Shown: piece by piece, positions 4,848 through 34,790 of the stretch | Layout: every line of letters begins with the position of its first letter | How positions within the stretch are numbered: the first letter of the stretch is position 1 | From: Bacteroidota bacterium | GTDB lineage: Bacteria > Bacteroidota > Bacteroidia > UBA4408 | Assembly: GCA_016718805.1 (NCBI GenBank) | Contig: JADKCP010000002.1 | Coordinates: forward strand, 56,392-120,391 | Direction: 5' to 3' | Length of the DNA: 64,000 nt | Notes under the pieces: generated by a model | The model's input: only the letters and a program-made list of their open reading frames with translations | Told to the model about the DNA's origin: nothing | Databases searched by the model: none | Made by a program: the position numbers and the translations under genes

Positions 4848-4869
4848 TTTCATCTCAGTTTTAAAAGAA

Positions 4870-7033: not shown

Positions 7034-7055
7034 TTTCATCTCAGTTTTAAAAGAA

Positions 7056-7088
7056 ATCGGCTGGCTCTTTGAGTCAGCCGATTTTTTA
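7056..7088 (+). terminator. Rho-independent terminator (same hairpin as 4870-4903, T6)
   Basis: Identical stem ATCGGCTG/CAGCCGAT and loop followed by a T-run. Confidence 0.7.
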
Positions 7089-7317
7089 TTCCTAAAGCTA
7101 AATTTTCCATTCTAATTTTTACATGGAATAGTGTCACTATAACCTTGTGAATTTATTTTCAATCGAATTCAAATAATCTTATCTTTAAACTAGATTTTAA
7201 GAAGTAATCGATTAAAATAAAACAAAGCAGGATTAATTTAATCGGTTTTGATTTGAATTTTGATTAGCTTTTAAAGAAGCTGTTACTATTATTTCTTATT
7301 CACTTTATTTAAAGCCT

Positions 7318-12574: not shown

Positions 12575-13220
12575 AATCTTCCATTAAAAGTTGCTCCTTG
12601 CAAAATTCGTATTCATGGTTAATGTGATTGGAGCAAACAATAAGCAAACGATTTTTAGCATAGTTATGAACTAAATGGCTATACCATTCAATTCCTTTTT
12701 TATCGAGGTTGGATGTAGGTTCATCAAGCAATATTATTGGTGTATTACTCAACAACGCCAGTGCTAATCGTACACGCTGTTTCATGCCACTTGAATAATA
12801 TTTGAGTTCTTTATCTTTAGATTTTTCGAGCCCAATAATTTGCACTATTTCGGTTGCGGATAAATCACTTAAAAAAGGTTTAAAGTGTGCTTGAAACTGA
12901 ATTAATTCTGTGAGTGAATATTCTTCTATTAATTCGAGGTAGGGCGAGGCAAAACTGAGTTGATGAAAAATTTGTTCAGCAGCAATATTTACCTGATCAT
13001 TTGAATAGTTTATTTTACCTTCGGATGGAAGTTGATTTCCAGCAATTACCTGCAATAAAGTAGATTTACCTGAGCCGTTTGAACCAAGTATGGCGTAGCT
13101 TTTATCCGAATTAAACTCACAGTTTAAATTTCTGAAAATCCATTCACGGTTATAGCGTTTACCTAGTTTTTCGAGTGTGATTTGCATTTTTTTCCTTAAC
13201 CGCTGCTTTCCATTTCGCAA
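12567..13220 (-). CDS. ABC transporter ATP-binding protein (stand-alone ATPase)
   Basis: Walker A GSNGSGKST, ABC signature YSSGMKQR, Walker B ILLDEPTSNLD. 6 nt downstream of lpxA on the same strand. Confidence 0.85.
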   Translation of the reverse strand: MRNGKQRLRKKMQITLEKLGKRYNREWIFRNLNCEFNSDKSYAILGSNGSGKSTLLQVIAGNQLPSEGKINYSNDQVNIAAEQIFHQLSFASPYLELIEEYSLTELIQFQAHFKPFLSDLSATEIVQIIGLEKSKDKELKYYSSGMKQRVRLALALLSNTPIILLDEPTSNLDKKGIEWYSHLVHNYAKNRLLIVCSNHINHEYEFCKEQLLMEDFK

Positions 13221-13226
13221 CTCATT

Positions 13227-14000
13227 TTAAGATATTCCTCTGATAATTCCTTCTTTAGAATTTCTTATAAAAGCGAGTATTTGTTCCTTTTCTTTGGAAG
13301 AAGGAGCTTCTTGCTCAATTACGGCAAGTGCATTTGAGACGTTTAATCCTTTTACATAAAGTGTTCGGTAAATATCTTCAATTTGCAAAATAATTTCATT
13401 ACTGAATCCTCGTCTGCGCAAGCCCACCGAATTAACACCTACATATTGCAATGGCTCACGAGCAGCTTTAGTGAATGGGGGCACGTTTTTTCTCACTCCG
13501 GTTAACCCCGAAATAAATGCATGTGCTCCAATTCGCACAAACTGTCCAACTCCTGTTCCTCCTTCAATTATAACCCAATCTTCAATATCTACATGTCCTG
13601 CAAGGTTAACACTGTTGGCAATTATAATATTATCCCCTAAAATACAATCGTGTGCAATGTGCACGTATGCCATTAAGAGGCAATTTTTACCAATTGCGGT
13701 TTTCATTTTGTCACTGGTCCCCTTGTTTACGGTAACACATTCTCGTATAATAGAATTGTCGCCAATTTCAGCGGTAGTTTTTTCACCGGCATATTTTAAA
13801 TCTTGAGGAATTGCAGCGATAACAGCGCCTGGAAAAATTTTACAATTTTCACCAATTCTTGCACCCGAAAAAATGGTCACATTTGGGCCTATCCAAGTAT
13901 TATCGCCAATTATCACATCTTCATCAATAAATGAAAAAGGTGAAATGGTAACGTTTTTCCCAATTTTTGCTTTAGGATTTACAAAATTCATTTCGTTCAT
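13227..14000 (-). CDS. lpxA: UDP-N-acetylglucosamine O-acyltransferase
   Basis: Left-handed beta-helix hexapeptide repeats throughout. 257 aa. Start overlaps the lpxC-fabZ stop by 4 nt (ATGA). Confidence 0.9.
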   Translation of the reverse strand: MNEMNFVNPKAKIGKNVTISPFSFIDEDVIIGDNTWIGPNVTIFSGARIGENCKIFPGAVIAAIPQDLKYAGEKTTAEIGDNSIIRECVTVNKGTSDKMKTAIGKNCLLMAYVHIAHDCILGDNIIIANSVNLAGHVDIEDWVIIEGGTGVGQFVRIGAHAFISGLTGVRKNVPPFTKAAREPLQYVGVNSVGLRRRGFSNEIILQIEDIYRTLYVKGLNVSNALAVIEQEAPSSKEKEQILAFIRNSKEGIIRGIS

Positions 14001-15430
14001 ACGCTTGCAGTAGCAGGTTCTGATTTAGGCTGTTTATCCTTTATGATTTGAGCAAGCATAACTGCTTCACAAACTTCACGACCATTCACATAGGCCACTC
14101 CACGCATATTTACTAAACCACGTCGAATAGGGCTTTCGAGCGTTAATTTAAACACTACAGTATCACCCGGCAGTACTTTTTGTTTGAATTTAACAGCGTC
14201 TATTTTCATAAAATAGGTGCTGTAAAATTCAGGATCAGGAACTTGTGAAAGCGCAAAAATACCTCCCACTTGTGCCATTGCTTCTAATTGCAATACTCCA
14301 GGAAATACAGGATTGTCGGGAAAATGTCCTTGAAAAAAGGGTTCATTAAAACTTACATTTTTTATTCCCACAATAGAATTACTATCCATTTCCATCACCT
14401 TATCAACCATTAAAAAGGGATAACGATGTGGTAGCATTTTGGTAATATCGTTGATAGTGTAAAGTGGTTCTTTATTTAAATCAAATTGAACAATACGTGC
14501 TTTACGTTTGGCTTTTTCAGCAAGGATCAATCCTTTTACCTTTTTTGCAAAAGCAACATTTCCGGCATGTCCAGGGCGAGCCGATAAAATATGCGCTTTT
14601 AAAGGCATTCCAACTAAAGCCATATCGCCAACTATATCGAGTAACTTATGTCGTGCAGGTTCGTTTTGATACTGTAATTTTAAATTGTTTAATACTCCTT
14701 TACCTACCACCTTCATACTCGGTTTGTTAAACAAGCTTGCCAATTCATCAAGTTTTTCCTGGCTTACCTCTTGTGCAACAATAACAATTGCATTGTTTAA
14801 ATCGCCACCTTTTGCCAAACCATGTTTCAGAAGCATTTCTAATTCATGTAAGAAAACAAAGGTGCGGCATTTACTGATTTCGTCTTTAAACTCTCCAATG
14901 TGATACATGCTGGCATGCTGTGTTCCCAGTACATCCGAATTATAATCGACCATTACGGTAAGTCTATATTCTTCAGAAGGCACCATGAGCATCTCCACAT
15001 GCTTTTCAGTATCTTCGTAGGTAAGTGTGCTATCAATTACAAAGTATTCGCGAATTGCGTCCTGTTCTACATAACCAGCCTTTTCAATAGCTTCCACAAA
15101 AGGTTTCGAGCTACCATCCATAATAGGAACTTCAGGACCGTCAATCTCTATATGGGCATTGTCTATTTGCATACCAACTAATGCAGCAAGAACATGTTCA
15201 ACAGTACTTACTTTAACACCATTTTTTCCTAAGGTAGTTCCGCGTGATGTATCTACCACCAAATCGCAGTCGGCTTCAATTATTGGTTTTCCATCAACGT
15301 CGATGCGCTGAAATTTATATCCGTAATTTTCATCGGCCGGATGTATGGTAAGTGTTGCTGAAGCACCTGTGTGCAACCCAACTCCTGAAACACTCACAGG
15401 GCTTTTTAAAGTTCGTTTTTTTTCAGACAT
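13997..15430 (-). CDS. lpxC-fabZ: Bifunctional UDP-3-O-acyl-GlcNAc deacetylase / 3-hydroxyacyl-ACP dehydratase (LpxC-FabZ fusion)
   Basis: N-terminal LpxC fold (…HTGASATLTIHPA…TVEHVLAAL…). C-terminal FabZ hot-dog (FFQGHFPDNPVFPGVLQLEAMAQ). This fusion is characteristic of Bacteroidota. Confidence 0.9.
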   Translation of the reverse strand: MSEKKRTLKSPVSVSGVGLHTGASATLTIHPADENYGYKFQRIDVDGKPIIEADCDLVVDTSRGTTLGKNGVKVSTVEHVLAALVGMQIDNAHIEIDGPEVPIMDGSSKPFVEAIEKAGYVEQDAIREYFVIDSTLTYEDTEKHVEMLMVPSEEYRLTVMVDYNSDVLGTQHASMYHIGEFKDEISKCRTFVFLHELEMLLKHGLAKGGDLNNAIVIVAQEVSQEKLDELASLFNKPSMKVVGKGVLNNLKLQYQNEPARHKLLDIVGDMALVGMPLKAHILSARPGHAGNVAFAKKVKGLILAEKAKRKARIVQFDLNKEPLYTINDITKMLPHRYPFLMVDKVMEMDSNSIVGIKNVSFNEPFFQGHFPDNPVFPGVLQLEAMAQVGGIFALSQVPDPEFYSTYFMKIDAVKFKQKVLPGDTVVFKLTLESPIRRGLVNMRGVAYVNGREVCEAVMLAQIIKDKQPKSEPATASV

Positions 15431-24121: not shown

Positions 24122-24802
24122 TTATTTAGTTGATTTTTGAATTGAACTAAATACTAGTTGTTCTAAAAAGGAAATAAGTTTTTTATCATCGGGAGTAGCA
24201 CTGTCGGTAAGTGCAGGTAAGTTTTCCATAAAGAACTGTTGGGCATGCGACATTTCTAAAATGGTACTTGCTAAAAAATAAGGATACTTGTATTTAGCAT
24301 TGTATTCTTTAATAATATCGGCGATTCGCTGGCATAAATCTTTATAGGGTTTAAACAAACGGTCTTTGTTATCCTTAGTAATGTTTCGGGTTAAATAGGC
24401 TTTTGAACTCTCCCACTTTACAAGTTCATAGGCTTCAAATTCGGAAATGAATTCAGTAGATTTTGCTCGTTCGGGAACCATTACTAAAAGCCGAATAATA
24501 GTTTTCAACTTTACTTCAGGGTCATTGATGTTGTTCAAACTAAACAGCACTTTATACTCTAAGAAACTCCAATACCAAGTGATAAGGTAAACCAACAACC
24601 TGTGTTTATTTTCGAAATAGCGGTATATACTGGCTTCTGTTGTTTCTATTTCAGCAGCAAGTTTTTTAAATGTAAAATCCTCAAATCCCAGTTTGTTAAT
24701 CAACACCAATCCCTGACTAACTATTCGCTTTCCTAATAAACTGTCTTCCGGATTTCGTAGGAAGAGTTTATCATTCATTTTGATTCGTATATCTAATAGC
24801 AT
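24122..24802 (-). CDS. TetR/AcrR-family transcriptional regulator
   Basis: N-terminal HTH (FEDFTFKKLAAEIETTEASIYRYFENK). 226 aa. Divergent to the downstream efflux-like operon. Confidence 0.8.
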   Translation of the reverse strand: MLLDIRIKMNDKLFLRNPEDSLLGKRIVSQGLVLINKLGFEDFTFKKLAAEIETTEASIYRYFENKHRLLVYLITWYWSFLEYKVLFSLNNINDPEVKLKTIIRLLVMVPERAKSTEFISEFEAYELVKWESSKAYLTRNITKDNKDRLFKPYKDLCQRIADIIKEYNAKYKYPYFLASTILEMSHAQQFFMENLPALTDSATPDDKKLISFLEQLVFSSIQKSTK

Positions 24803-24909
24803 TGTTGTTTAATTTGAAAGTACAAATATAGCAAATATTATTTAACAGATTTTATATAATAGCTTTACTATCATTTAATGAGTATTACTATTTTTGTAAA
24901 AAAATAAAA

Positions 24910-25221
24910 ATGATAACTGTTTATATTTATCTCGACTCAGAAGAAAATGCAGGTAAACTGGTGAAAGGTTTAATAGCGAATGATTTACTCGCACATGCAT
25001 CCATCGATATTGACAACCGTTCATTTAGTAAAATAGACGGTGAATTATTTCAGCAAACCAATGTTGTAATAACCGGGCAAACCAAAGCTTTGTTGTTTAC
25101 TCCCATATTGGAATATATTTCTAGTGAAGGTTATGAAAACACAAAGGTGTATTCGCTACCGATTACTCAATGCAATGGAAATTTTAGTGAAATAATACGG
25201 CAAAACACGCAGAAAATATGA
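24910..25221 (+). CDS. Small CutA-like (PII-fold) protein, divergent; translationally coupled to the downstream gene
   Basis: 103 aa. Collinear with CutA1 over the whole length (…VYIYLDSEENAGKL…LLAHASI…SFSKIDGEL…TK…EGYENTK…LPIT.GN..F…), but key aromatic residues are substituted. ATGA overlap with the next ORF. Confidence 0.4.
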   Translation: MITVYIYLDSEENAGKLVKGLIANDLLAHASIDIDNRSFSKIDGELFQQTNVVITGQTKALLFTPILEYISSEGYENTKVYSLPITQCNGNFSEIIRQNTQKI

Positions 25222-27452
25222 TGAATGCAAAAACAAAGTTATTGCTAAAATGGCTGAATAAAGAAAGGAAACTTATTTACAGAATTTATGCTTTAGCTTT
25301 TTTACAAGGAGCCTTATACATTGCTATTCCGCTTGTGATACAAGGTATGATTACGTATGTTATGGCGGGTAAATTTTCGGCATCCTTATTTTTATTATGC
25401 TTGCTGGTAATATCCATTACCTTGTTGATTGGTTTTTTTCAGTTATGGCAAATGCGTTTGAATGAAACTTTGCATGAAAAGATTTTTTGCAACCTAACTG
25501 ACCGATTGGCGCAATTGACTATAAAGAATAAAGAAGCTAAGAAAAAGATAGTACATTTTTTTGAAGTAGTTACATTACAAAAGGGAATAGGTAAAGTCCT
25601 CCTTGAGTTTTCGTTTTCGGTAATTAGTATAATATTCGGAATTCTTCTATTACCGGCCTATAGTAATTGGTTCTTTATTTTCTCGGTTTTATTAGGTATT
25701 ACCTTTTTTCTGATAATTACTTATTATGGAAAAAAAGCTCAAGAAGAAAACATTAAGACATCCACACATAAATACGAAATATTCGACATTTTATCGTCAG
25801 GTAATACTCAATTACCTGAGGTTGATGCAGCCTTAGACCAGTATCTAGATCACCGCAAAATTTACTATTCCACTTTTGAGAAACAATACAAAGGAATTTT
25901 GTTTTTTAAGTTCTTTTTTATCAGCATACTTCTTTTTGTCGGGGCATATTTAGTGCAACATGGAGAGCTTAATATTGGACAATTTGTAGCTTCAGAAATT
26001 ATCATATTACTGGTGATTAATGCAGTAGAAAAGTTAATAGGAAGCATGGGTACTTTTTACGACATGATAACCGGATTATATAAACTTGAACTATTATTTA
26101 GTCATAATCCTAGCGAATCTTATCTTGAATCAGAAGCCAGACCAACACTTAATTCAATAACCCGTATTTATAGAAATAGGTACTCAAACAGAGTTAAAGC
26201 AATATTTTATACCGTACTTTTTTCGAGTATTGTGATACTATTTCTTCCTTGGACACAAACGGTGAAAATGGATGGAGAAGTAAGTGTGTTGAATCCCGAA
26301 AATAAACCACAGCAAGTTACCTCACGCATTGCCGGACGAATTGAAAAATGGTATATAAAGGACGGCGATTTTGTAAAGAAAAATGACACCATCGCTTTTA
26401 TTTCTGAAATAAAGGAAGAATACATGGATTCGCTTTTAGTGCAACGCTCGGAAGATCAAGTAAAAGCAAAGGAGATTAGTATTGCATCCTATGAAAACAA
26501 AGTGGCTGCCATTGACAAACAAATTGATGCCATAAATAAGGCTTTACATTTAAAAACGGAACAAGTAAAAAACAAGATACAGCAATCTAAAGCGAAATTG
26601 GCGAGCGATATTGCCGATTCGGACGCTGCTTTGAATAATTACAAAGTAACAGAAGACCAATTTAAACGATTTGAAGAACTTTTTGCCAAAGGAGTAATTT
26701 CAAAAACCGATCTCGAAAACCGAAAAATAAAGGTGCAAGAGGCATTTGCGAAGAAGGTTGCAGCTGAGAATAAAATAATTGCTGCAAAAAATGATTTACT
26801 CAACAATGAAATTGAGCTTAATTCGACTTTGCAAGAATACACTGAGAAGTTAACCAAAACTGAGTCTGAAAAATTCGCAACAATTTCGATGCGTTATGAA
26901 TCGGAAGGAATGCTTACTAAGCTGCAAAACCAACTTTCAAATTATTCGTTGCGCAATACTTATTATTTTGTTTTGGCTCCTCGTGATGGATATGTCAGCA
27001 ATTTAGCCATGCAAGGTGTTGGAGAAATTGTGAAAGAAGGTGGAATGCTTTGTAGTGTAGCGCCAATAAAAAGTGAACAAGCCGTTGAACTTTATGTTGA
27101 TCCGGTTGATTTACCGCTAGTAGCAAAAGGTCAAAGGGTGCAATTGATATTTGATGGGTGGCCGGCTTTTGTATTTTCGGGATGGCCCGGAATAAGTTAT
27201 GGTAGCTATAGTGCCGAAGTGGTTGCATTTGATAAGGTGATTTCACCCAACGGAAAATTTAGAGTATTAGCCGTAAATAAAGGCGAACCTTGGCCAATGG
27301 CTATACAACTTGGTGGTGGAGCAAAAGGACTCGCCTTACTAAGCAATGTGCCTGTAGTTTACGAATTATGGAGAAAGGCCAATGGTTTTCCACCTGAATT
27401 TTATTTATCAAAAAATGAAAGTACAAAGCATGAACTTACAGATAAGAATTAA
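25218..27452 (+). CDS. Fusion protein: ABC-exporter-type transmembrane domain (6 TM, no nucleotide-binding domain) + HlyD-family membrane fusion protein
   Basis: Residues 1-300: six hydrophobic helices with ABC type-I exporter TMD spacing and the TM6-like segment LNIGQFVASEIIILLVINAVEKLIGSMGTFYDM. No Walker A, Walker B or LSGGQ anywhere. Residues ~320-744: HlyD organisation (TM anchor, biotinyl/lipoyl-like hairpin VKMDGEVSVLNPE…IKDGDFVKKNDTIAFIS, ~150-aa coiled coil, beta-barrel domain YYFVLAPRDGYV…). Confidence 0.7.
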   Translation: MMNAKTKLLLKWLNKERKLIYRIYALAFLQGALYIAIPLVIQGMITYVMAGKFSASLFLLCLLVISITLLIGFFQLWQMRLNETLHEKIFCNLTDRLAQLTIKNKEAKKKIVHFFEVVTLQKGIGKVLLEFSFSVISIIFGILLLPAYSNWFFIFSVLLGITFFLIITYYGKKAQEENIKTSTHKYEIFDILSSGNTQLPEVDAALDQYLDHRKIYYSTFEKQYKGILFFKFFFISILLFVGAYLVQHGELNIGQFVASEIIILLVINAVEKLIGSMGTFYDMITGLYKLELLFSHNPSESYLESEARPTLNSITRIYRNRYSNRVKAIFYTVLFSSIVILFLPWTQTVKMDGEVSVLNPENKPQQVTSRIAGRIEKWYIKDGDFVKKNDTIAFISEIKEEYMDSLLVQRSEDQVKAKEISIASYENKVAAIDKQIDAINKALHLKTEQVKNKIQQSKAKLASDIADSDAALNNYKVTEDQFKRFEELFAKGVISKTDLENRKIKVQEAFAKKVAAENKIIAAKNDLLNNEIELNSTLQEYTEKLTKTESEKFATISMRYESEGMLTKLQNQLSNYSLRNTYYFVLAPRDGYVSNLAMQGVGEIVKEGGMLCSVAPIKSEQAVELYVDPVDLPLVAKGQRVQLIFDGWPAFVFSGWPGISYGSYSAEVVAFDKVISPNGKFRVLAVNKGEPWPMAIQLGGGAKGLALLSNVPVVYELWRKANGFPPEFYLSKNESTKHELTDKN

Positions 27453-28836
27453 TATATTACTTCTGCAGATTTTCCTTATTGTTATTAATTGTGAAGCGCA
27501 GAGTAGCAGAGAACTTTCGTATGGAAAATTTTTATCGCTATTAAAAAACACGAATTTGTTGGCTCAAAAGGCTGAGAATAATTTACCATTTGCTGGCTAT
27601 CAACTTAAGGCGGCACAAGGAAATTTTGATCCTCAGTTATCTAGTTCATACAACAATAAACAATTTAATTCAAAGAATTATTTCAGTTATGGTTCGGCTG
27701 AAATAAAGCAACCATTGTATACTTCTCACTATTTAAAAATGGGTTATCAATATGGTCAAGGAGTTAGTATAAATCCTGAATTCGCTACATCAGCTATTGG
27801 TTTACCTTATGTTGGTGTGGAAGTTAGTCTATTACAAGGCTTGCTAATGGATAAGCGAAGGGCTGAAATAAAGAAGGCTAAATATTACTCAGACTATTAT
27901 AAAGATGAACAAAAAATACAATTGAATGAACTGTTTTACTATGCATCAACAACCTACATGGAAGGTGTATACTCAAAAAAAATAAACAGTATTTACGCTT
28001 ATTTTTCAAATCTTGCTCAACAGCGCCTTGAAGGAATTAGCGAGTTGTCGAAATCAGGAGAAAAACCAGCTGTTGACACCATTGAAGCAGCCATTTATTT
28101 ACAAGGGCGACTGCTTGAAATGCAGGCAAGTGAAATAGAGTTGAGTAAAAAAAGTACCGAAATACAAACTTTAATTTCGAGCAGTGATGAATTGGTTAAG
28201 GATAGAATAGAATATTCGGATAGTTTAGACCAATTGTACCTTTCGGCAAGCATCGCTATTCAGCAATTATTACAGAATGAAACAATATCCAATCCCTTAT
28301 TATCACAATATATTGCTAAACAAAAAGTATTAGAAACTGAGCTTCGATTAAAACGAGAATTAATAAAACCTGTATTGGATGTGAGCTACAATTTTTTGAG
28401 TAATGACAATCAAACCTACTTGCAAGGCTTTACAACAAATGCCTATAAGTGGGGAGCAACATTTTCGTTTCCGCTTTATTTACGTAAAGCAAGAAACGAA
28501 TATAAAATGGCTCAAATAGCTGTTCAAAACAATGAACTTGAAACCATCAATAAGCAAAATCAATTTAGTAACAAACGCAAATTTATTGTTGAAGCATTAA
28601 GGGTTTGTCAAGAACAAATAAATAATGCGGAAAAATCGGTTAATTATAGCAATCTTTTGGTGGAGGCTGAAAAATTGAAATTTGTAAATGGTGAAAGTTC
28701 CTTGTTTTTGGTAAATGCACGTGAGAACAAATGGCTCGAAAACGAATTAAAACTTGCCGAATACAAATTAAAATATTTAAAGGCTATACTGGAATTGGTT
28801 TATACAGATGGTAATCTTAATTTTGAATTAAGTTAA
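27415..28836 (+). CDS. TolC-family outer-membrane efflux channel
   Basis: Signal peptide (MKVQSMNLQIRINILLLQIFLIVINCEAQ). Two long helical-repeat halves typical of the outer-membrane factor family. The ORF-track frame opens at 27382 and overlaps the upstream gene end. Start chosen at an internal Met. Confidence 0.8.
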   Translation: MKVQSMNLQIRINILLLQIFLIVINCEAQSSRELSYGKFLSLLKNTNLLAQKAENNLPFAGYQLKAAQGNFDPQLSSSYNNKQFNSKNYFSYGSAEIKQPLYTSHYLKMGYQYGQGVSINPEFATSAIGLPYVGVEVSLLQGLLMDKRRAEIKKAKYYSDYYKDEQKIQLNELFYYASTTYMEGVYSKKINSIYAYFSNLAQQRLEGISELSKSGEKPAVDTIEAAIYLQGRLLEMQASEIELSKKSTEIQTLISSSDELVKDRIEYSDSLDQLYLSASIAIQQLLQNETISNPLLSQYIAKQKVLETELRLKRELIKPVLDVSYNFLSNDNQTYLQGFTTNAYKWGATFSFPLYLRKARNEYKMAQIAVQNNELETINKQNQFSNKRKFIVEALRVCQEQINNAEKSVNYSNLLVEAEKLKFVNGESSLFLVNARENKWLENELKLAEYKLKYLKAILELVYTDGNLNFELS

Positions 28837-28969: not shown

Positions 28970-28977
28970 TAACTTTG
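28970..28977 (+). promoter_or_regulatory. Candidate Bacteroidota sigma-A -7 box (TAacTTTG)
   Basis: Matches the TAnnTTTG consensus. It overlaps the first in-frame TTG of the sigma-factor ORF. This suggests the true start is the TTG at 29002, giving MKEEALLINNLKEG…. Confidence 0.25.
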
Positions 28978-29577
28978 CCGAACAAAGCTCAGCTAGAAGT
29001 ATTGAAAGAAGAAGCATTACTTATAAATAATTTAAAGGAGGGCAGCGTAGAAGCTTTTGAAAAAATTTTCACAAGTTATTACGCAACATTGGTGAATTAT
29101 GCCAAAACAATTATTAAAGATTGGGAGGCAGCTGAAGATATAGTGCAACAAGTTTTTATTTCGATTTGGGAAAAAAAGCAGACGCTTGAAATACATAGCT
29201 CTTTTAAAGCCATGCTTTATAAATCGGTATACAATGCATGTTTAAATTTTATTAAAAAAGAGCAAGTGAGAAGCAATTATGCACAAGAAAGCATGAAACA
29301 ACCTATTGAACAAGCAACAATGGAGCATTCGTTTCTTCAAAAAGAACTGCAAACAAAAATTGAAACAGCTATTGATCAGTTACCAGAGCAATGTGCCAAA
29401 ATATTTAAGATGAGTCGATTTGAGCAATTGAAATATGCTGAAATAGCCGATCGTTTAGGCTTGTCAATTAAAACGATAGAGAATCAGATGGGTAAAGCTT
29501 TGAAAATTTTACGCGAACAGTTAAGAGAATACTTGCCATTAATTATACTTTATATAAGCAGAAGCTACTTTGATTAA
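28975..29577 (+). CDS. ECF-subfamily RNA polymerase sigma-70 factor
   Basis: Region 2 (…DIVQQVFISIWEKK…). Region 4 HTH (LKYAEIADRLGLSIKTIENQMGKALKILRE). Likely true start at 29002. Confidence 0.85.
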   Translation: MPNKAQLEVLKEEALLINNLKEGSVEAFEKIFTSYYATLVNYAKTIIKDWEAAEDIVQQVFISIWEKKQTLEIHSSFKAMLYKSVYNACLNFIKKEQVRSNYAQESMKQPIEQATMEHSFLQKELQTKIETAIDQLPEQCAKIFKMSRFEQLKYAEIADRLGLSIKTIENQMGKALKILREQLREYLPLIILYISRSYFD

Positions 29578-30544
29578 TACTGATAACATACACGATTTAA
29601 TTGGTAAATTTTTGGCGGGTGAAGCTAGTCCAGAAGAAGCAATGCTGCTTGATGAATGGAGAAGTTCACAGCAAGAAAACGACGCGCTTTTCAAACACTA
29701 CGAAAATATATTCACACTTTCATCCGGCTCTTCCGAAAGTAAAGAAATTAATCCAAAGTTGGCTTTTGAAAAAATTAAACCCAAGTTGAAAAACGAAGCT
29801 GATATTAGTGTTTCAACTCGTTCTAAACCTTTTCTTAAAATAGCTGCCTCAATAGCTTTATTAATAGGTGTAGCAAGCACACTTTATTATTTATTTTCAC
29901 ATTCAACAAGTTCTACGATTGTATATGAAAGCGGTAAAAGTAAGCAAGATATAAAGCTTAGTGATGGCAGCAAAGTGCTTCTTTCAGCGCAATCAACGCT
30001 TAGCGAAAATAAAAATTATGGTAAAAATAACAGGATACTTCAATTAAAGGGAACTGCCTATTTTTCAGTTGTGCATGATACGAATATGCCCTTTATAGTT
30101 GATGTTGGAAATGTATATATTAAAGATATTGGAACCAAATTCACAATTGATGCAGCTCCAACTCGCGATACTATTTTTGTTAACGTTGAAGAAGGAGTTG
30201 TTTTACTGTTCGATAGTATTGGCAGTTCATTGGAAATTCAAGCATCTGAAAAAGCCTTGTACATAAAGTCTCAAAAAAGAATTGTAGCACCTTCTAAATT
30301 AAATATTGAAAAACGGCACATGGTATTTACTCATGCTCGTCTTGCAGATGTGCTTGTTAAATTAAACGCTGAGTATAAAACCAACATCAAGTTGGAAAAT
30401 CCCAACTTGAACAATTGTGAAATTACTACCCAATTCACTAATGAAGAGCTAGAAACCATTGTTGCAATATTGGCGGAAACATTGGAGCTAAGCTACGTTA
30501 AAACAAGTGATGGTTATTTGATTAAAGGTGAAAAATGCAAGTAA
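29570..30544 (+). CDS. FecR-family anti-sigma factor (single-TM; FecR domain + DUF4974-like C-terminus)
   Basis: N-terminal LIGKFLAGEASPEEAMLLDEW. One TM (IAASIALLIGVASTLYYLF). FecR beta-domain (DIKLSDGSKVLL…LKGTAYFSV…). 8-nt overlap with the sigma gene. Confidence 0.8.
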   Translation: MINTDNIHDLIGKFLAGEASPEEAMLLDEWRSSQQENDALFKHYENIFTLSSGSSESKEINPKLAFEKIKPKLKNEADISVSTRSKPFLKIAASIALLIGVASTLYYLFSHSTSSTIVYESGKSKQDIKLSDGSKVLLSAQSTLSENKNYGKNNRILQLKGTAYFSVVHDTNMPFIVDVGNVYIKDIGTKFTIDAAPTRDTIFVNVEEGVVLLFDSIGSSLEIQASEKALYIKSQKRIVAPSKLNIEKRHMVFTHARLADVLVKLNAEYKTNIKLENPNLNNCEITTQFTNEELETIVAILAETLELSYVKTSDGYLIKGEKCK

Positions 30545-32352
30545 AATTCATACTAAAGCACTTTTGTTTATATGCGTGCTTACTACTATCAAATAATTTG
30601 TTTGGGCAGGCTCTCCCCTATCTTGAACGACCTGTAACGCTGCATGCATCAAATAAAACACTTGCCGAAATATTTTCAAGCATAAGCCAGCAAACTCAAG
30701 TTGTTTTTTCGTATGCTCAAACTTTTAATGACCAACAACGGATTGTTTATCACTGCAACAAACGCCCGCTGCGAATTGTATTGCAACAATTACTTGAACC
30801 ATCCGATTGTCGATTTAAAATAAAAGGAAAATTTTTGATTCTCACCTGTGATGAAAAAATGCATTCATCTAACCTCCTTTTAAATGGGTATGTTTATAAT
30901 GCTATCGATAGCAGTCGAATAGAAGAAGCAAGCATCTATGTGAAGCAAACACGACACTCTGTGCGTTCCGATAAGTATGGTTATTTTGCATTGAGTTATA
31001 CCGCTAAAATTCCACAGCTTACAGTGTCTTTCGCTAAAGAAAATTTTAAAGATACATCGCTTATTTTGGTGAATAAAAGAAAGCAAGAATTAAGTGTATT
31101 CCTCTACCCTATTGAAAATAAATTGCCTTCTAAAACTATTAATGAGATTGCTGTAAATAAAGACAGTTTTCAGTTAGCATTAAAAGATACAGCAACATTG
31201 TTGTCAGTAAGTAGCGCTGGATTTTGGAATAAATTCAGAACAATTAATGCGAATTTTCGCAACATCAGTGATACGCTATTTGCCTCTACATCCATATCAC
31301 TAGTTCCTTATATAAGTACGAATCACTTACTTTCAGTGAATACAGTAAATAAATATTCGTTTAATATTTTGATGGGTTATTCAAAAGGTGTGAATTTGCT
31401 GGAAATTGCAGGATTACTAAATATTGATAATGGCAATGTGCAATATGTTCAATTGGCCGGTTTGGGAAATATTGTTTCGGGCGATGTGAAAGGAGTTCAG
31501 GCTGCGGGGCTGATTAACTCTAATGGAGGAAAAGCGCAATTGGTGCAACTTGCAGGACTATTAAATTTGAATAAAAACAATTTTCGCGGAGTACAAACTG
31601 CAGGAATAGGAAATTACGTAAAGGGCAAAACTTCTGGAGTACAATTGAGTGGTGTATTTAATAAAGCAACCATTTGCAAAGGGGTTCAATTAACCGGTAT
31701 TGTAAATATTGCAGATACTTTAATAGGTTTACAAACGAGCGGAATTGTTAATAAAACACATTACTTTAAAGGAATGCAGCTCGCCGGTATTGTAAATAAA
31801 GCAGACTATTTTAACGGTGTACAACTTGGCTTGATTAATAGTTCAGATAGTACGAATGGAATTCCGATTGGAATAGTTAGTTGGGTGAAAAAAGGGTATC
31901 ATAAAGTAAGTTTAAGTACTGATGAATTACAATTCGCCTACCTTAGCTTTGGTACTGGGGTTGAAAAATTTCACAATGTATTTATTGCCGGTATAAATTA
32001 TACCAATGGAAATTACTATTCACTTGGATATGGAATAGGAAGCAGTTTTGCACTTAACAAGCGCTTAGGTTTGAGTGCCGAACTTAGTACAAAGCAAGTA
32101 TTTACTTCAGTTGATGTTCCTGTAAAAACAAATCTCTATAACCAACTCTTTATTGGTGCAGATATATTGCTTCATAAAAAGTTTAGAATAAGCCTTGGTC
32201 CTGAATTAACAGTGTATATAGCAGATACTAAAGGAGCTGATTTCAACAAGTTGGACCGAAGATTAACTTCAAGCGATTTATACTCCAGCATTCAAGGTAA
32301 CATGGCCATTAAATGTTGGGCCGGTGGAAAAATTGCATTAAGTTTTTTCTAA
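30535..32352 (+). CDS. Outer-membrane protein: STN (secretin/TonB short N-terminal) domain + carboxypeptidase-regulatory-like domain + GVQLAG(I/L)xN tandem repeats + C-terminal beta-strand-rich region
   Basis: Signal peptide. STN-like segment (VTLHASNKTLAEIFSSISQQTQVVFSYA…QQLLEPSDCRFKIKGKFLIL). CarbopepD_reg-like (LLLNGYVYNAIDSSRIEEASIYV…SDKYGYFALSY). At least 9 repeats of ~15-16 aa. Amphipathic alternating pattern to the C-terminal F. Confidence 0.65.
   Translation: MQVKFILKHFCLYACLLLSNNLFGQALPYLERPVTLHASNKTLAEIFSSISQQTQVVFSYAQTFNDQQRIVYHCNKRPLRIVLQQLLEPSDCRFKIKGKFLILTCDEKMHSSNLLLNGYVYNAIDSSRIEEASIYVKQTRHSVRSDKYGYFALSYTAKIPQLTVSFAKENFKDTSLILVNKRKQELSVFLYPIENKLPSKTINEIAVNKDSFQLALKDTATLLSVSSAGFWNKFRTINANFRNISDTLFASTSISLVPYISTNHLLSVNTVNKYSFNILMGYSKGVNLLEIAGLLNIDNGNVQYVQLAGLGNIVSGDVKGVQAAGLINSNGGKAQLVQLAGLLNLNKNNFRGVQTAGIGNYVKGKTSGVQLSGVFNKATICKGVQLTGIVNIADTLIGLQTSGIVNKTHYFKGMQLAGIVNKADYFNGVQLGLINSSDSTNGIPIGIVSWVKKGYHKVSLSTDELQFAYLSFGTGVEKFHNVFIAGINYTNGNYYSLGYGIGSSFALNKRLGLSAELSTKQVFTSVDVPVKTNLYNQLFIGADILLHKKFRISLGPELTVYIADTKGADFNKLDRRLTSSDLYSSIQGNMAIKCWAGGKIALSFF
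31387..31888 (+). repeat. In-frame tandem repeat (~45-48 nt period, at least 9 units) encoding G(V/M)Q(L/T)(A/S/T)G(I/L)(V/I)N + 6-7 variable residues
   Basis: Units: GVNLLEIAGLLNIDN / GNVQYVQLAGLGNIVSGDVK / GVQAAGLINSNGGKAQLVQLAGLLNLNKNNFR / GVQTAGIGNYVKGKTS / GVQLSGVFNKATICK / GVQLTGIVNIADTLI / GLQTSGIVNKTHYFK / GMQLAGIVNKADYFN / GVQLGLINSSDSTN. Confidence 0.7.
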
Positions 32353-32420
32353 TTTTTTTTTCGAGCATAGGGGTAAACCTAATTTGTGTTGTCATACATG
32401 CATAACACAAAAAAACGTCT

Positions 32421-34790
32421 ATGAAATCGTTCAAAAAAATCGCAGTAATTTATTTAGTGAATTTAGCTTTTAGTCTCCCATCATTTGCCCAAACAATTAC
32501 ACAAACAATAAGAGGCAACGTGGTAGATAAAATTTCTCAATCGCCATTACCGGGTGTAATCATAACACTTATGAACTCATCACCAATTAAGGGTTGCAGT
32601 ACTGACACCGATGGTAATTTTAAACTAAGTGAGGTAGCTATCGGCAAACAAAGTTTACGTGTAAGTTTCCTTGGTTATAAGGAATTAGTTTTGCAAAATC
32701 TGGTAGTTAATTCGGGAAAAGAACTGGTTATTACGGTGCAATTGGAAGAAGATATTAAAGCCATTCAAGAAATTGTGGTGAGTGCTAAAGTTGAAAAAAA
32801 TAAAGCATTAAATCCAATGTCAACAGTGAGTACGCGTACCTTTTCGGTAGAAGAAACGCAAAAATTTGCAGCAGCAGTAAATGATCCGGCACGCATGGCT
32901 ACTTCGTTTGCAGGAGTAACACAAGGGCCAGATGGAAACAACCATATTTCTATTCGTGGAAATTCGCCCAATGGTTTATTGTGGAGAATGGAAGGAGTTG
33001 AAATTCCTAATCCGAATCATTTTTCGAGTGTAGGAACTTCAGGTGGAGGAATCTCTATTTTGAGTTCGCAATTATTGGGTAATTCAGACTTTTCAACAGG
33101 AGCTTTTGCTGCCGAATATGGGAATGCTCTATCCGGAGTTTTTGATTTGAAGCTGCGAAAAGGAAATAATGAAAAACGGGAATATACTTTTCAACTTGGC
33201 TTTTTAGGTGTTGATGCTGCCAGCGAAGGTCCAATTAAAGCCGGTTATGAAGGATCGTACTTAGTTAATTATCGCTATTCAACTTTAAATTTATTAAGCA
33301 AAATAGGTGTTCCAATAGATGATGGGAGTACTAATTTTCAAGACCTTTCCTTTAATGTTTCTTTGCCTACAAAGAAAGCAGGAAACTTTAGTGTATTTGG
33401 TTTTGGCGGATTAAGCTATCAAAGAACCAATGCTAAAAAAGATACGGCAAAATGGAGCGAAGACAGTTTTACTCAATACAATTCAAACTTTTACAGCAAT
33501 ACAGGTGCAGTTGGAATTACCCATACCAAGCTATTTAACAATCAATCCTATTTAAAAACAATACTTGCTTTTTCGGGATCACAAAATGCTTCTAAATATG
33601 ATAAATTGCAGGAAGACTTCGTCAATCTAACAACAGAACAAGAAGAAAAATATTTTCAAAATAAAATTACTTTAAGCTCTAGCTACACCAAAAAAATCAA
33701 CATAAAAAGCAATGTCAGAACTGGAATTATAGTAAACCAATTGGGTTATAACTTAGCATTAAAAGACAAGCAAGATACTACTCAATTGACTACCCGAATT
33801 CATGTAAAAGGAGCAACTCAAACGCTTCAGGCATTTTTTCAATGGAATTATAAACTAAACAATCAATTAACCACTAACGTTGGTCTTCATTACAATCACT
33901 TGTTGTTAAATAATTCAAACTCAATTGAGCCACGAGCATCGCTCAAGTACGATGTAAATGCACATCAAAATATCACTTTGGGTTATGGCCTTCATAGCCA
34001 GTTACAACCGATAGGTGTTTATTTTGCGCAATCACAAAGTGATGATGGAAAGATACAAACGCCGAATAATAATTTAGCGCTAAGTAAAGCACATCATATA
34101 GTAATGGGGTATGATGTGAATATGAATTCGTTTTCACACATAAAAGCTGAAATTTATTACCAACATTTATTTTCACTACCTATTTCAAAAGATACAAGTT
34201 CAACTTATTCAATAGTAAACACTACCGATGGCTACACTACAGCTGAATTAGTGAATAATGGCTTAGGAAAAAATTATGGGCTTGAACTAACGTATGAGCG
34301 ATTCTTGTATAAAAACTTATATTATTTATTGTCGGCTTCACTCTATGACTCAAAATATAAAGCTGCCGATGGAGATTGGTACAATACCCGATTTAATACG
34401 AATTATACCTTTTCATTTACAGGAGGAAAAGAATGGACTTTATCAGAAAAAAGAAAGAGCAGAGTCATTGGTTTTAATTTAAAAGCCTTGTATGTTGGTG
34501 GATTCAGATATACTCCAATTGATTTAAATGCCTCTATAAACAAGGGAGAAACGGTTGTTGATGATAACAAAACATTTCAAGAAAAAAATCCGGATTATTA
34601 CAGATTGGATATTCGTATAAGTGTAAAACGCAATTATAAAAAATTAACCAGTACCGTTGCATTAGACATACAGAATACAACAAATCGTAAGAATGTTGGA
34701 GGTCAGTATTTCAACAATAAAACTGGGGAAATAAATTACTGGTATCAAACACCTTTGATTCCTGTTTTGAGTTATCGTTTGGAGTTTTAG
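32421..34790 (+). CDS. TonB-dependent outer-membrane receptor (CarbopepD_reg N-domain + plug + 22-strand barrel; no STN domain)
   Basis: Signal peptide. TIRGNVVDK…PGVIITL…TDTDGNF (carboxypeptidase-regulatory-like). Plug (NPMSTVSTRTFSVEETQKFAAAVNDPARMATSFAGV). Long alternating-strand region ending …YRLEF. Confidence 0.85.
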   Translation: MKSFKKIAVIYLVNLAFSLPSFAQTITQTIRGNVVDKISQSPLPGVIITLMNSSPIKGCSTDTDGNFKLSEVAIGKQSLRVSFLGYKELVLQNLVVNSGKELVITVQLEEDIKAIQEIVVSAKVEKNKALNPMSTVSTRTFSVEETQKFAAAVNDPARMATSFAGVTQGPDGNNHISIRGNSPNGLLWRMEGVEIPNPNHFSSVGTSGGGISILSSQLLGNSDFSTGAFAAEYGNALSGVFDLKLRKGNNEKREYTFQLGFLGVDAASEGPIKAGYEGSYLVNYRYSTLNLLSKIGVPIDDGSTNFQDLSFNVSLPTKKAGNFSVFGFGGLSYQRTNAKKDTAKWSEDSFTQYNSNFYSNTGAVGITHTKLFNNQSYLKTILAFSGSQNASKYDKLQEDFVNLTTEQEEKYFQNKITLSSSYTKKINIKSNVRTGIIVNQLGYNLALKDKQDTTQLTTRIHVKGATQTLQAFFQWNYKLNNQLTTNVGLHYNHLLLNNSNSIEPRASLKYDVNAHQNITLGYGLHSQLQPIGVYFAQSQSDDGKIQTPNNNLALSKAHHIVMGYDVNMNSFSHIKAEIYYQHLFSLPISKDTSSTYSIVNTTDGYTTAELVNNGLGKNYGLELTYERFLYKNLYYLLSASLYDSKYKAADGDWYNTRFNTNYTFSFTGGKEWTLSEKRKSRVIGFNLKALYVGGFRYTPIDLNASINKGETVVDDNKTFQEKNPDYYRLDIRISVKRNYKKLTSTVALDIQNTTNRKNVGGQYFNNKTGEINYWYQTPLIPVLSYRLEF

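Follow-up and report, generated by a model that had tools for sequence, protein, structure and literature searches.

How could an envelope-spanning pump work when its inner-membrane component is the membrane domain of an ABC exporter with no ATPase attached? A four-gene locus of a Bacteroidota bacterium raises this question. It lies within the window, the whole 64,000-nucleotide stretch of contig JADKCP010000002.1 analysed here. An earlier note had described it as a TetR-linked tripartite operon built around a fusion of an ABC exporter transmembrane domain (TMD) to an HlyD-type adaptor, with no nucleotide-binding domain (NBD), and all four open reading frames (ORFs) were recovered where it had placed them. 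The locus is almost certainly a TetR-repressed exporter operon spanning the envelope, the inner-membrane part of which is a single TMD-linker-HlyD polypeptide. The best overall explanation, to which I assign a probability of roughly 0.6, is that this NBD-excised fusion would work as an ATP-independent tripartite exporter. A full-text literature search and the main review of tripartite pumps yielded no description of an ABC-TMD::HlyD architecture, in agreement with the note, which had regarded it as undescribed.

Organization of the locus

The TetR-family repressor gene (24122..24802, minus strand; Pfam TetR_N, E 6e-8) is divergent from the pump operon, which comprises three genes on the plus strand. 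The first (24910..25221) encodes a CutA1-like small cytoplasmic protein of 103 aa; its stop overlaps the start of the fusion gene as ATGA, and the two genes are translationally coupled. The fusion gene itself (25218..27452) is a single uninterrupted ORF encoding 744 aa. The third gene (27382..28836) encodes a TolC-family outer-membrane factor (Pfam OEP, E 7e-23, in two stretches), and its longest ORF overlaps the 3' end of the fusion gene, starting at 27382 ahead of the fusion end at 27452, as the note had observed. Translation of the TolC gene may in fact begin further in, at an ATG at 27415 or 27430. Across fusion loci, the longest TolC ORF starts a median of 22 nt before the fusion ORF ends.

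A relative of the fusion is encoded at 161 species-level genome loci, 80 of which were retained for synteny, and across these 80 the TetR-fusion-TolC arrangement is nearly universal. TetR orthologues (E 1e-70 to 1e-138) lie divergently beside the fusion in 57 of them, a divergent TetR neighbour being present in nearly all loci having sufficient upstream sequence, and a TolC orthologue follows the fusion gene in 77.

The CutA-like identity of the first gene is borne out by its Pfam CutA1 score (28.3 bits, the gathering score being 22.4) and by a family profile that aligns with crystal structures of CutA1 from end to end (E 4e-8; 22/24 matches), with half of the family members (18/36) matching Pfam CutA1 individually. 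Such a gene occurs within 10 kb of 39/80 fusion operons, in three arrangements, whereas it is rare beside the canonical operons described below (within 7 kb of 7/81; Fisher p = 1e-8). It is thus a statistically enriched yet optional accessory of the fusion operon. No RTX-type substrate gene was found near the fusion operon, and around fusion operons no further transporter gene is conserved.

An exporter membrane domain joined to an adaptor

Residues 1-292 of the fusion (25218..26093, plus strand, as are all of its segments) form an elbow helix and six transmembrane (TM) helices of a type-IV ABC exporter of the T1SS/PCAT lineage, with no NBD. A short cytoplasmic linker, residues 293-323 (26094..26186), of low conservation (0.47), takes the place of the ~255-residue linker and NBD of relatives. 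It is followed by a predicted seventh TM helix, residues 324-342 (26187..26243), which is the native anchor of the HlyD adaptor and aligns with the TM helix at the N-terminus of HlyD homologues that are not fused; the R/K-rich stretch before it is consistent with a cytoplasmic location. The remainder, residues 343-744 and the stop (26244..27452), is a periplasmic HlyD/EmrA-type adaptor with a lipoyl domain, a long alpha-helical hairpin (long helices 405-490 and 496-578) and a beta-barrel.

Both halves of this assignment, already proposed in the note, are supported by independent comparisons. The N-terminus matches Pfam ABC_membrane at 28.0 bits, exactly the gathering score, as well as ABC_membrane_3, and has weak NCBIfam matches to PCAT, PrtD and HlyB exporters. 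A profile of the TMD retrieves TMD-NBD ABC exporters with E values between 1e-70 and 1e-56, and identity to one of these, P0123, is 32% across the whole TMD. The AlphaFold model of the TMD (pLDDT 91; helices 4-15, 17-49, 55-103, 111-148, 151-193, 199-247 and 253-292) is matched by Foldseek to PCAT1, ComA, HlyB and TmrAB. The N-terminal domain is therefore a bona fide, complete six-helix exporter TMD. The C-terminus matches Pfam HlyD_3, HlyD_D23 and Biotin_lipoyl_2 and NCBIfam TIGR01843 type_I_hlyD (residues 328-649, E 5e-21), and the PDB profile matches of the adaptor half include EmrA and HlyD, as do its Foldseek matches (EmrA 4tko at E 5e-10; HlyD 5c22). A search of the fusion ORF for Walker A, Walker B and LSGGQ, loose patterns included, was as empty as the note had reported.

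Origin from a canonical operon

The closest non-fusion relatives of the fusion TMD are proteins with both ABC_membrane and ABC_tran domains. At 81 canonical loci the order is TetR-ABC(~555 aa)-HlyD(~450 aa)-TolC(~465 aa), as in Fulvivirga ligni (CP089979.1, locus L085), and the ABC gene is annotated 'peptidase domain-containing ABC transporter' or 'ATP-binding cassette domain-containing protein'. Each component of the fusion operon has its homologue there, from regulator and operator to TMD, adaptor and duct: the TMDs share ~30-34% identity (E ~1e-50), the HlyD parts 46% (E 1e-145), and the TetR genes that head the canonical operons match at E 1e-55 to 1e-68, while a palindromic operator, TolC and the ABC-HlyD-TolC order are also held in common. 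Canonical operons differ in that the C-terminal NBD is kept, with non-canonical motifs, the ABC gene is separate from HlyD, TetR is the co-directional first gene rather than divergent, and the tips of the intracellular loops (ICLs) are 6 and 13 residues longer.

Alignment to one canonical locus (L083) places fusion residues 11-290 on residues 16-315 of the ABC protein and fusion residues 312-737 on residues 19-446 of the separate HlyD (E 1.6e-145), with only ~21 residues between the two matches on the fusion. For separate HlyD proteins, E values against the C-terminal half run from 1e-136 to 1e-145, and the two parts meet at a clean junction. With the same near-certainty as the architecture, these alignments indicate descent from the TetR-ABC(TMD-NBD)-HlyD-TolC operon, very common in Bacteroidota, and they point to clean excision of the NBD with in-frame joining of two adjacent genes. 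The note, made from the sequence alone, had no view of this source, nor of the shared operator or the optional status of the CutA-like gene.

The NBD of the parent family appears, from its motifs, to have been non-canonical already before the fusion, and it seems to be dispensable. Among the 142 nearest relatives, Walker A is found in 70, LSGGQ in 1, hhhhDE in 19 and the H-loop His in 10, and in one subfamily (P0125) the counts are 117/119 for Walker A, 0/119 for LSGGQ and 1/119 for hhhhDE. As Walker A is intact in about half of the canonical relatives and in nearly all of that subfamily, nucleotide binding may matter there. In other lineages, homologous operons also contain TMD genes that are complete and unfused yet lack the NBD, encoding 325 and 329 aa. 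At L166-L168 the order is TetR-TMD-HlyD-TolC, and at L170, a 3.5-kb contig without TetR or TolC, the NBD-less TMD is followed by an HlyD cut at the contig end. In a neighbour-joining tree without support values these unfused TMDs branch separately from the fusion clade, which suggests that the NBD was lost independently. They retain full-length ICL tips, so NBD loss need not entail trimming of the loops.

The operator also links the two operon types, which have the palindrome ATAGTA-W-TACTAT in common. The candidate operator and promoter region of the window (24859..24896, strand not assigned) contains an imperfect palindrome, ATAGCTTTACTAT (24859-24871), and a second candidate operator site, TGAGTATTACTAT (24879-24891), which overlaps a candidate promoter element, TATTTTTG (24889-24896). 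This element I take to be a Bacteroidetes-type -7 box, from the TAnnTTTG consensus of Bacteroides promoters. The family consensus of the operator is ATAATAGTA-W-TACTATTAT, and both copies in the window have two mismatches each. The core palindrome, TAGTA-W-TACTA, occurs 48 times in the 260-nt regions upstream of fusion operons (18.3 kb in total) and twice in the remaining 1.21 Mb. The operator was found in 48/80 fusion loci, ~50 nt upstream of the first gene, and in 49/81 canonical loci, mostly 17-42 nt upstream of tetR.

Conservation of the fusion

Since the fusion clearly derives by deletion from a two-gene ancestor, it might be an ABC-HlyD pair in decay, whether as a remnant or as a pseudogene, or an NBD might be concealed by a frameshift or by faulty assembly. 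This reading, part of which the note had entertained as a 'degenerate' exporter or a frameshift concealing a downstream NBD, is effectively refuted. The ORF is uninterrupted, the ~21 residues between the TMD and HlyD matches are too few to accommodate an NBD in any frame, and independent assemblies show this architecture and length again and again: the best 120 of the 934 homologues are all 739-764 aa, and hundreds of fusion-length homologues (~740-765 aa) exist in Bacteroidota. Purifying selection is strong: dN/dS is 0.021 over the TMD and 0.051 over the HlyD half.

Alternatively, the TMD could be a non-translocating part of a seven-helix anchor or scaffold, the adaptor-TolC conduit being passive or fed by another inner-membrane transporter whose gene lies elsewhere. 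A single adaptor can be shared among transporters, the operon encodes no energy-coupling module, and the TMD contains no SbmA-like glutamate ladder or other obvious proton-relay ladder. Yet the TM helices are conserved (0.70-0.88) as well as or better than the adaptor, the TMD has the lower dN/dS, no rival transporter gene is conserved nearby, and a full 300-residue exporter fold would be needless for a mere anchor. Many invariant polar residues, such as Q42, K122, Q255 and E260, are common to the fusion and its NBD-containing relatives. I consider the anchor reading unlikely.

Is there an NBD partner?

The fusion could also recruit a stand-alone NBD encoded in trans and so remain ATP-driven. 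ABC systems with a separately encoded NBD are well established, FtsEX and the MacB family being examples (PMC8277102), and the fusion TMD still has helices that extend far into the cytoplasm, while near ICL1 it keeps the invariant motif EVVTLQKG. The note had found no NBD gene within 30 kb on this strand, to which one small correction applies: a stand-alone ABC ATPase (12567-13220) lies 11 kb away on the opposite strand, beside lpxA and lpxC-fabZ. Its orthologue adjoins TetR at one locus (L072), but it is not conserved near the fusion operon in other genomes, and ABC ATPases of any kind occur within 10 kb in only 4/80 loci, at inconsistent positions. The exporter at 58885-60642 is, as the note had judged, self-contained, an ordinary TMD-NBD protein unrelated to the fusion (E 0.026 against its TMD).

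The docking surface itself is reduced. The ICL tips, which carry the NBD-docking coupling helices, measure 26 aa (ICL1) and 24 aa (ICL2) in the fusion against 32 and 37 in canonical relatives, whereas the TM segments have identical lengths, and nowhere in the TMD is conservation lower than in the tips (0.39-0.41 against 0.70-0.88). Short, variable docking loops and the scarcity of neighbouring ABC ATPases make a trans-encoded NBD improbable, more so than the anchor. Furthermore, the ancestral cis NBD already lacked the signature motif, catalytic Glu and H-loop His, and in type-IV exporters, as far as is known, the NBD is nearly always in cis. The note had left open whether the system is ATPase-less or served in trans; the ICL tips, the 80 loci, the degenerate parent NBD and the unfused NBD-less variants favour the former.

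A possible mechanism and its precedents

It is thus likely that the pump is ATP-independent: the TMD would function with no NBD, either in cis or in trans, and TMD dimers would alternate access using another energy source. The most plausible is the proton-motive force, by analogy with SbmA/BacA and NBD-less MsbA, although facilitated efflux down a gradient is an alternative, and proton coupling is only a tentative proposal. Its best candidate coupling residue would be Glu260, which does not vary among the fusions and is conserved at 90% or more in the clade as a whole. This residue is situated in TM6, 7 residues inward from the periplasmic end, and is the sole conserved acidic residue within the membrane. 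NBD-containing relatives share it, so it did not arise as a response to NBD loss.

SbmA/BacA (SLiPT) proton-driven peptide importers have an NBD-less type-IV ABC TMD fold, and it has been proposed that they arose from full-length ABC transporters when the NBD and the coupling helices were lost (PMC13316013), which recalls the trimmed tips of the fusion. No relationship to SbmA is detectable in sequence, with no Pfam SbmA_BacA match and no SbmA among the PDB profile matches; the fusion differs in having no TM0 helices or glutamate ladder, and SbmA is a stand-alone importer whereas the fusion would be an adaptor- and TolC-coupled exporter. LmrA-MD is an engineered NBD-less ABC exporter. MsbA-MD, cut after TM6 at a site equivalent to the ends of the unfused L166 and L170 TMDs and to the fusion junction, retains delta-pH-dependent efflux of ethidium in proteoliposomes (PMC4979069). 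Both are laboratory constructs of ATP-dependent pumps, whereas the fusion belongs to a natural, tripartite family under purifying selection.

Type I secretion and PCAT systems (HlyB-HlyD-TolC, PrtDEF, ComA, PCAT1) share the TMD fold and lineage, giving the best structural and profile matches, together with an HlyD-type adaptor with an N-terminal TM anchor, a TolC duct and a 1:1 ratio of transporter to adaptor. The fusion differs from them in its TetR control, its covalently joined adaptor and its lack of NBD, C39 and CLD domains. It is hard to see how an unfolded polypeptide, the classical type I substrate, could be moved without ATP. EmrAB-TolC (MFS) and AcrAB-TolC (RND) likewise pair their inner-membrane transporter with an adaptor and TolC, are controlled by a repressor and are driven by the proton-motive force, and among solved structures EmrA is closest to the fusion adaptor; their transporter fold is not an ABC TMD and their adaptor is a separate protein.

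PDB entry 8dck contains 6 HlyB and 6 HlyD chains, and a 1:1 covalent fusion would hard-wire this 6:6 stoichiometry, the adaptor hexamer docking onto the TolC trimer. TetR bound to the palindrome over the promoter would silence the operon until released by a ligand, which is presumably the pump substrate or a small molecule related to it. The fusion family thus offers a natural test of whether the membrane domains of ABC exporters can function without ATP.

Domain architecture of the operon

Translation of the window yields four open reading frames (ORFs) where the earlier note had placed them. A TetR-family gene (24122-24802; Pfam TetR_N) lies on the minus strand, and three genes follow on the plus strand: a 103-aa CutA1-like ORF (24910-25221; Pfam CutA1, 28.3 bits against a gathering score of 22.4), the 744-aa fusion gene (25218-27452), whose ATG overlaps the stop of the 103-aa ORF, and a 484-aa TolC-family ORF (27382-28836), which overlaps the end of the fusion ORF. 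The latter is an outer-membrane efflux protein by its Pfam OEP match (E 7e-23, two repeats), and a hydrophobic segment, ILLLQIFLIVINCEAQ, can be seen by eye at the N-terminus of its translation. The C-terminal half of the fusion belongs to the HlyD/membrane fusion family, with Pfam HlyD_3 and HlyD_D23 above their cut-offs, Biotin_lipoyl_2 just below, an anchor helix (324-342), hairpin helices (405-578) and Foldseek matches to EmrA and HlyD. Its best NCBIfam model, TIGR01843 (type_I_hlyD; residues 328-649), scores 75 bits, below the 208-bit cut-off.

The N-terminal half matches Pfam ABC_membrane (PF00664) at 28.0 bits, exactly the gathering score of 28 and thus borderline, together with ABC_membrane_3; many fusion homologues carry a precomputed PF00664 match, and there are weak NCBIfam matches to the PCAT, PrtD, and HlyB exporters. 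When a profile of 30 homologues was compared with PDB sequences, residues ~11-305 aligned to the whole transmembrane domain (TMD) of ComA, HlyB, PCAT1, PrtD, and CmABCB1, and the C-terminal half aligned with EmrA and HlyD. A profile of the N-terminal domain alone matched only ABC exporter TMDs among PDB sequences. Against 1.84 billion representative proteins it gave 1,913 matches, with about two representatives standing for the whole fusion family. In the 148 matches that come next (E 1e-70 to 1e-56), either the TMD opens a protein of 525-590 aa, or an extension of ~150-190 aa precedes it in a protein of 700-760 aa; most of the full-length proteins sampled from these have the Pfam architecture ABC_membrane plus ABC_tran. 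One homologue, P0123, is 32% identical to the fusion across the entire TMD (E 8e-53).

A full-length AlphaFold model built from a shallow alignment (pLDDT 65) gave only adaptor matches in a fold search, and a model of the N-terminal domain from a deeper alignment took its place. This model of residues 1-352 (91 sequences; pLDDT 91, pTM 0.85) has an elbow helix, six long transmembrane (TM) helices, and, at residues 324-342, a seventh. Foldseek returned 188 matches at E <= 1e-3, and all 50 of the 50 matches listed are type-IV ABC exporters, including PCAT1, ComA, HlyB, and TmrAB, with best TM-scores of 0.6-0.67. The profile, model and fold searches together bear out the proposal that this half of the protein is a real ABC exporter TMD, with a borderline family-model match and a superposable elbow-plus-six-helix fold. 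The self-contained ABC exporter elsewhere in the window (58885-60642), considered as a partner or as the source of the TMD, is unrelated (E 0.026 against the fusion TMD).

The window has a G+C content of ~35% and encodes proteins sorted by the type IX secretion system (T9SS). At 2937-9225 (+) lie three tandem paralogues of ~632-636 aa (2937-4847, 5135-7033, and 7318-9225), each ending in a T9SS C-terminal sorting domain, and an identical 13-mer, ATAGTGTCACTAT, occurs in the two gaps between them (at 4945 and 7128). Directly downstream of the TolC gene, at 28975-34790 (+), is a cluster encoding an ECF sigma factor, a FecR-type anti-sigma factor, a 605-aa protein that has many short repeats of the G(V/I)Q(L/T)(A/S)G type and matches CarboxypepD_reg no more than weakly, and a TonB-dependent-receptor-like protein. 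Other loci do not conserve this cluster beside the pump.

Conservation of the fusion family

I identified 934 homologues in a search of 5.8 billion proteins, and the best 120 of these 934 are all 739-764 aa long. The closest relative of the fusion protein, with 96% amino-acid identity, is from an uncultured Bacteroidia metagenome-assembled genome (MAG). In the databases these proteins are named 'HlyD family efflux transporter periplasmic adaptor subunit', 'biotin/lipoyl-binding protein', or 'AcrA', adaptor-only labels that hide the transporter domain. Among species-representative genomes, 161 loci contain a relative, of which 80 were kept; all 80 come from MAGs, nearly all titled Bacteroidota, with a few record titles naming other taxa. 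A TolC gene follows the fusion in 77 of the 80, and a divergent TetR gene precedes it in 57, which is nearly all of those with enough upstream sequence.

In comparison with the closest orthologue, the TMD has a dN/dS of 0.021, the linker and TM7 one of 0.061, and the HlyD part one of 0.051. This low dN/dS, together with the synteny and the family-wide conservation, excludes that the gene is a pseudogene or an assembly artefact, or that it hides a frameshifted ATPase domain (NBD). The last of these was among the cases that the earlier note had named as fatal to its reading, and it fails on conserved length, synteny and dN/dS alike. Selection has kept the fusion across many Bacteroidota lineages.

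Origin from a canonical four-gene operon

The relatives that retain an NBD point directly to the source of the fusion. Three loci encode its parts as separate genes: L083 contains TetR, a 97-aa ORF, an ABC protein (TMD-NBD, 570 aa), and HlyD (446 aa); L082 contains ABC, HlyD, and TolC; and L084 contains TetR, ABC (735 aa), HlyD, and TolC. These canonical components are homologous to those of the window (TetR, E 1e-55 to 1e-68; TMD, ~1e-50; TolC, up to 7e-57), and the separate HlyD matches the C-terminal half of the fusion at up to 4e-136. Fusion residues 11-290 correspond to ABC residues 16-315, and fusion residues 312-737 to HlyD residues 19-446 (46% identity, E 1.6e-145). By these alignment bounds, ~255 residues of linker and NBD and ~18 N-terminal residues of HlyD were replaced by ~21 residues. 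The architecture of the fusion and its origin can be taken as established.

With 7,772 matches, the canonical family is a very large one; its members include cultured species such as Fulvivirga ligni, whose operon (CP089979.1) consists of TetR, ABC (575 aa), HlyD (461 aa), and OEP (481 aa). The same four genes recur very regularly in 80 further metagenomic canonical loci. Only one organisational difference separates the two kinds of operon: TetR is the co-directional first gene in canonical operons, whereas in fusion operons it is divergent, on the opposite strand. An inversion or re-insertion of the regulator thus accompanied or followed the rise of the fusion lineage.

Canonical ABC proteins also come in a long form (700-760 aa; for example L084:721-2928), which has an N-terminal extension of ~150-190 aa at the position where PCATs have a C39 peptidase. 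Pfam Peptidase_C39 gave no match at E <= 1e-3 in the two long-form relatives examined (P0128 and P0136), and the extension may be a divergent or inactive C39-like domain.

TMD genes without an NBD also occur unfused. P0195 (325 aa) is a complete, unfused TMD gene that lacks an NBD and lies in TetR-TMD-HlyD-TolC operons (L166-L168; L166:4336-8711), an arrangement recovered from five contigs, the longest of them 168 kb. P0255 (329 aa; L170:1416-3535) is followed by a HlyD gene that runs to the contig end. Both proteins stop just past TM6, where the stop codon overlaps the start codon of HlyD (ATGA), and both kinds of variant retain full-length intracellular loop (ICL) tips. L166 has the same TetR, operator, HlyD, and TolC as the other operons, L167 and L168 share the operator too, and the short L170 contig shows the operator and a truncated HlyD. 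A further candidate for a stand-alone TMD, P0175 (358 aa), is really a fragment at a contig end. A neighbour-joining tree without support values makes the fusions a single clade and places L170 within a group of NBD-containing members and L166 elsewhere, an arrangement that suggests two or three separate losses of the NBD.

Absence of an ATPase domain

As the earlier note had reported, Walker A, Walker B, and LSGGQ-like motifs are absent from the fusion. Relaxed patterns do not reveal any either, and there is no Pfam ABC_tran match. Could an NBD be supplied in trans? ABC ATPases occur within 10 kb of only four of the 80 fusion loci (L017, L034, L072, and L073), at inconsistent positions, and de novo clustering of neighbouring genes in the fusion loci recovered no other conserved transporter or ATPase. 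The window does encode a stand-alone 217-aa ATPase (12567-13220, -) with no adjoining permease, directly downstream of lpxA (13227-14000) and lpxC-fabZ (13997-15430). As a trans-acting NBD it was rejected: it is not conserved near the operon, except in L072, the one locus where its orthologue adjoins the TetR gene (L072:3532-4167).

The membrane domain itself has changed where an NBD would dock. TM segments are identical in length in fusion and canonical proteins, whereas the ICL1 region has 26 residues in the fusion against 32 in canonical proteins and the ICL2 region 24 against 37 (6 and 13 fewer). The loop tips, where coupling helices would contact the NBD, are the least conserved parts of the fusion (majority fraction 0.41 and 0.39, against 0.70-0.88 in the TM helices), so that the docking loops are relaxed while the TM helices are strongly constrained. 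With neither NBD motifs nor conserved ICL1 and ICL2 coupling helices, the fusion does not classify as an ATPase-driven ABC transporter. Loss of coupling helices, the same pattern, has been described for SbmA (PMC13316013).

The NBDs of the relatives are themselves unusual. Of the 142 nearest relatives of full length, 70 have an intact Walker A, 1 has LSGGQ, 19 have the Walker B hhhhDE motif, and 10 have the H-loop histidine; just one protein combines Walker A, an SGG signature, and a Walker B 'DE'. The P0125 subfamily has Walker A in 117 of 119 members, LSGGQ in none (typically LPxSI instead), and hhhhDE in one (typically LLLLED). By these motifs, the ancestral cis NBD was non-canonical before it was lost. 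Thus, three lines of evidence, the scarcity of NBDs near the loci, the trimmed ICL tips, and the non-canonical ancestral NBD, argue that no NBD serves the fusion anywhere. Sister-family proteins (P0123-P0270 and P0271-P0389, from loci L082-L165) are annotated as bacteriocin or lantibiotic exporters or as peptidase-domain ABC transporters, and the label of ATP-driven bacteriocin exporter is probably misleading.

TetR and a candidate operator

Single-locus inverted repeats in so AT-rich an intergenic region are not meaningful alone; it was a k-mer comparison of the TetR-operon intergenic regions across loci that yielded a candidate TetR operator, ATAATAGTAWTACTATTAT, with the palindromic consensus ATAATAGTA-W-TACTATTAT. 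In the 80 fusion loci the 260-nt upstream regions (18.3 kb) contain 48 copies of the core of this palindrome, against two in the remaining 1.21 Mb, and the core lies ~50 nt upstream of the first operon gene. A TACTAT half-site follows ~20 nt downstream, overlapping a TAnnTTTG motif, which I take to be the -7 promoter consensus of Bacteroidetes. Both copies in the window (24859-24871 and 24879-24891) are imperfect, with two mismatches each, and the second abuts a -7-like box, TATTTTTG, at 24889-24896. A generic scan for sigma-70 promoters and terminators gave no useful signal, with 15 promoter-like sites against 20 expected from shuffled sequence, and no terminators.

Of 81 canonical loci, 49 carry this core as well, mostly 17-42 nt upstream of tetR, so that the operator candidate is common to both kinds of operon (upstream regions of fusion loci L003-L079 and canonical loci L085-L165). 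Together with TetR_N and the synteny, this enriched and shared palindrome supports the claim of TetR control well at the genomic level; binding of TetR to the palindrome is predicted. The association of the TMD with adaptor, TolC duct, and TetR/operator switch is conserved.

The CutA-like gene is an optional accessory

The 103-aa protein is a divergent member of the CutA1 family (PF03091): its profile matches 22 PDB sequences of CutA1, with E 4e-8 at best, and of the 36 members of the CutA-like family 18 pass the Pfam CutA1 model individually. No signal peptide or TM segment is visible in its sequence. A CutA-like gene lies within 10 kb of 39 of the 80 fusion operons, immediately upstream as in the window in 9, immediately after TolC in 15, and nearby in 15. 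Of the 81 canonical operons, by contrast, 7 have one within 7 kb (Fisher p = 1e-8, odds ratio 10). In two loci (L052:7261-8711 and L057:6803-8226) ~1.1 kb separates the CutA-like and fusion genes, where an extra gene has probably been inserted. The small ORFs of 65-122 aa beside the canonical operons L083, L084, and L085 are not CutA-like on comparison.

A strict replacement of the NBD by the CutA-like protein is contradicted by its absence from 26 of the 61 fusion loci with full context and its presence at 7 canonical loci. It is an enriched but optional accessory of fusion operons. That it forms a trimeric cytoplasmic cap or regulator on a three-fold-symmetric assembly is only a speculation.

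A possible mechanism

The fusion would adopt an N-in topology with seven TM helices and the adaptor in the periplasm, which fits because the cytoplasm is where an exporter TMD ends and where HlyD starts. It would also impose a 1:1 ratio of TMD to adaptor. In MacAB the ratio is 2:6, and entry 8dck, with six HlyB and six HlyD chains, matches 1:1. TMD dimers probably alternate access without nucleotide. SbmA, a type-IV TMD driven by protons, is proposed to have lost its NBD (PMC13316013), and MsbA truncated after TM6 retains delta-pH-dependent efflux in proteoliposomes (PMC4979069). These precedents make nucleotide-free alternating access plausible for the type-IV fold, and ATP-independent transport by the fusion appears likely.

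What would drive such transport? The best candidate coupling residue is Glu260, which is invariant and in the model is placed seven residues into TM6 from the periplasmic side, with an invariant Gln42 (TM1) at similar depth. It is the only conserved acidic residue placed within the membrane span; E271 is near the cytoplasmic interface. Glu260 is also present in NBD-containing relatives, and the fusion has no glutamate ladder. Proton coupling, by analogy with SbmA and truncated MsbA, is best put forward tentatively, and facilitated efflux is a possible alternative to it. Control by a TetR regulator points to a small molecule or a lipid-like compound as an inducible substrate and not to a classical type I secretion protein.

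Tripartite efflux and type I secretion are textbook machines, each defined by the energy-transducing component in its inner membrane. The fusion operon shares the adaptor and outer-membrane factor of a type I secretion system (T1SS), but the ATPase is absent and no RTX-like or other candidate substrate gene is conserved nearby. Without an NBD it is neither an ABC transporter nor a T1SS, even though it derives from T1SS/PCAT-type exporters; it would work like a tripartite efflux pump. Nor does it belong to SbmA/BacA (PF05992), having no Pfam or PDB-profile match, no extra TM0 pair, and no glutamate ladder. The two are alike in working principle only, the fusion being export-directed, adaptor-fused, and TolC-coupled.

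The boldest reading, to which I give a probability of roughly 0.35, is that the fusion is a natural, widespread tripartite exporter driven by the proton motive force (PMF) through a type-IV ABC membrane domain, and the end-point of an entire Bacteroidota clade of 'ABC' exporters linked to HlyD and TolC, whose NBDs are non-catalytic and repeatedly discarded.

Significance

Neither the fusion nor the clade with degenerate NBDs was described in the literature searched, which included a comprehensive 2021 review of tripartite systems and few subscription-journal papers, in keeping with the earlier note, which had met no account of this architecture. Here an ABC membrane domain has been kept, its ATPase discarded, and the remainder joined covalently to the adaptor. 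The fusion thereby offers a natural system for testing ATP-free transport by type-IV ABC membrane domains, the evidence for which has so far rested on SbmA/BacA and engineered truncations. Its fixed 1:1 transporter:adaptor ratio would bear on the architecture of T1SS-like assemblies and makes it an attractive cryo-EM target. The work also exposes a very large Bacteroidota sister family of 'ABC transporters' without the NBD signature motif. If the fusion is indeed PMF-driven, it would represent a further class of energisation for TolC-coupled pumps, beside ABC (ATP), RND, and MFS, and an independent, export-directed parallel to SbmA/BacA. It would then lend natural support to the contested idea that the TMDs of ABC exporters are intrinsically secondary-active translocators.
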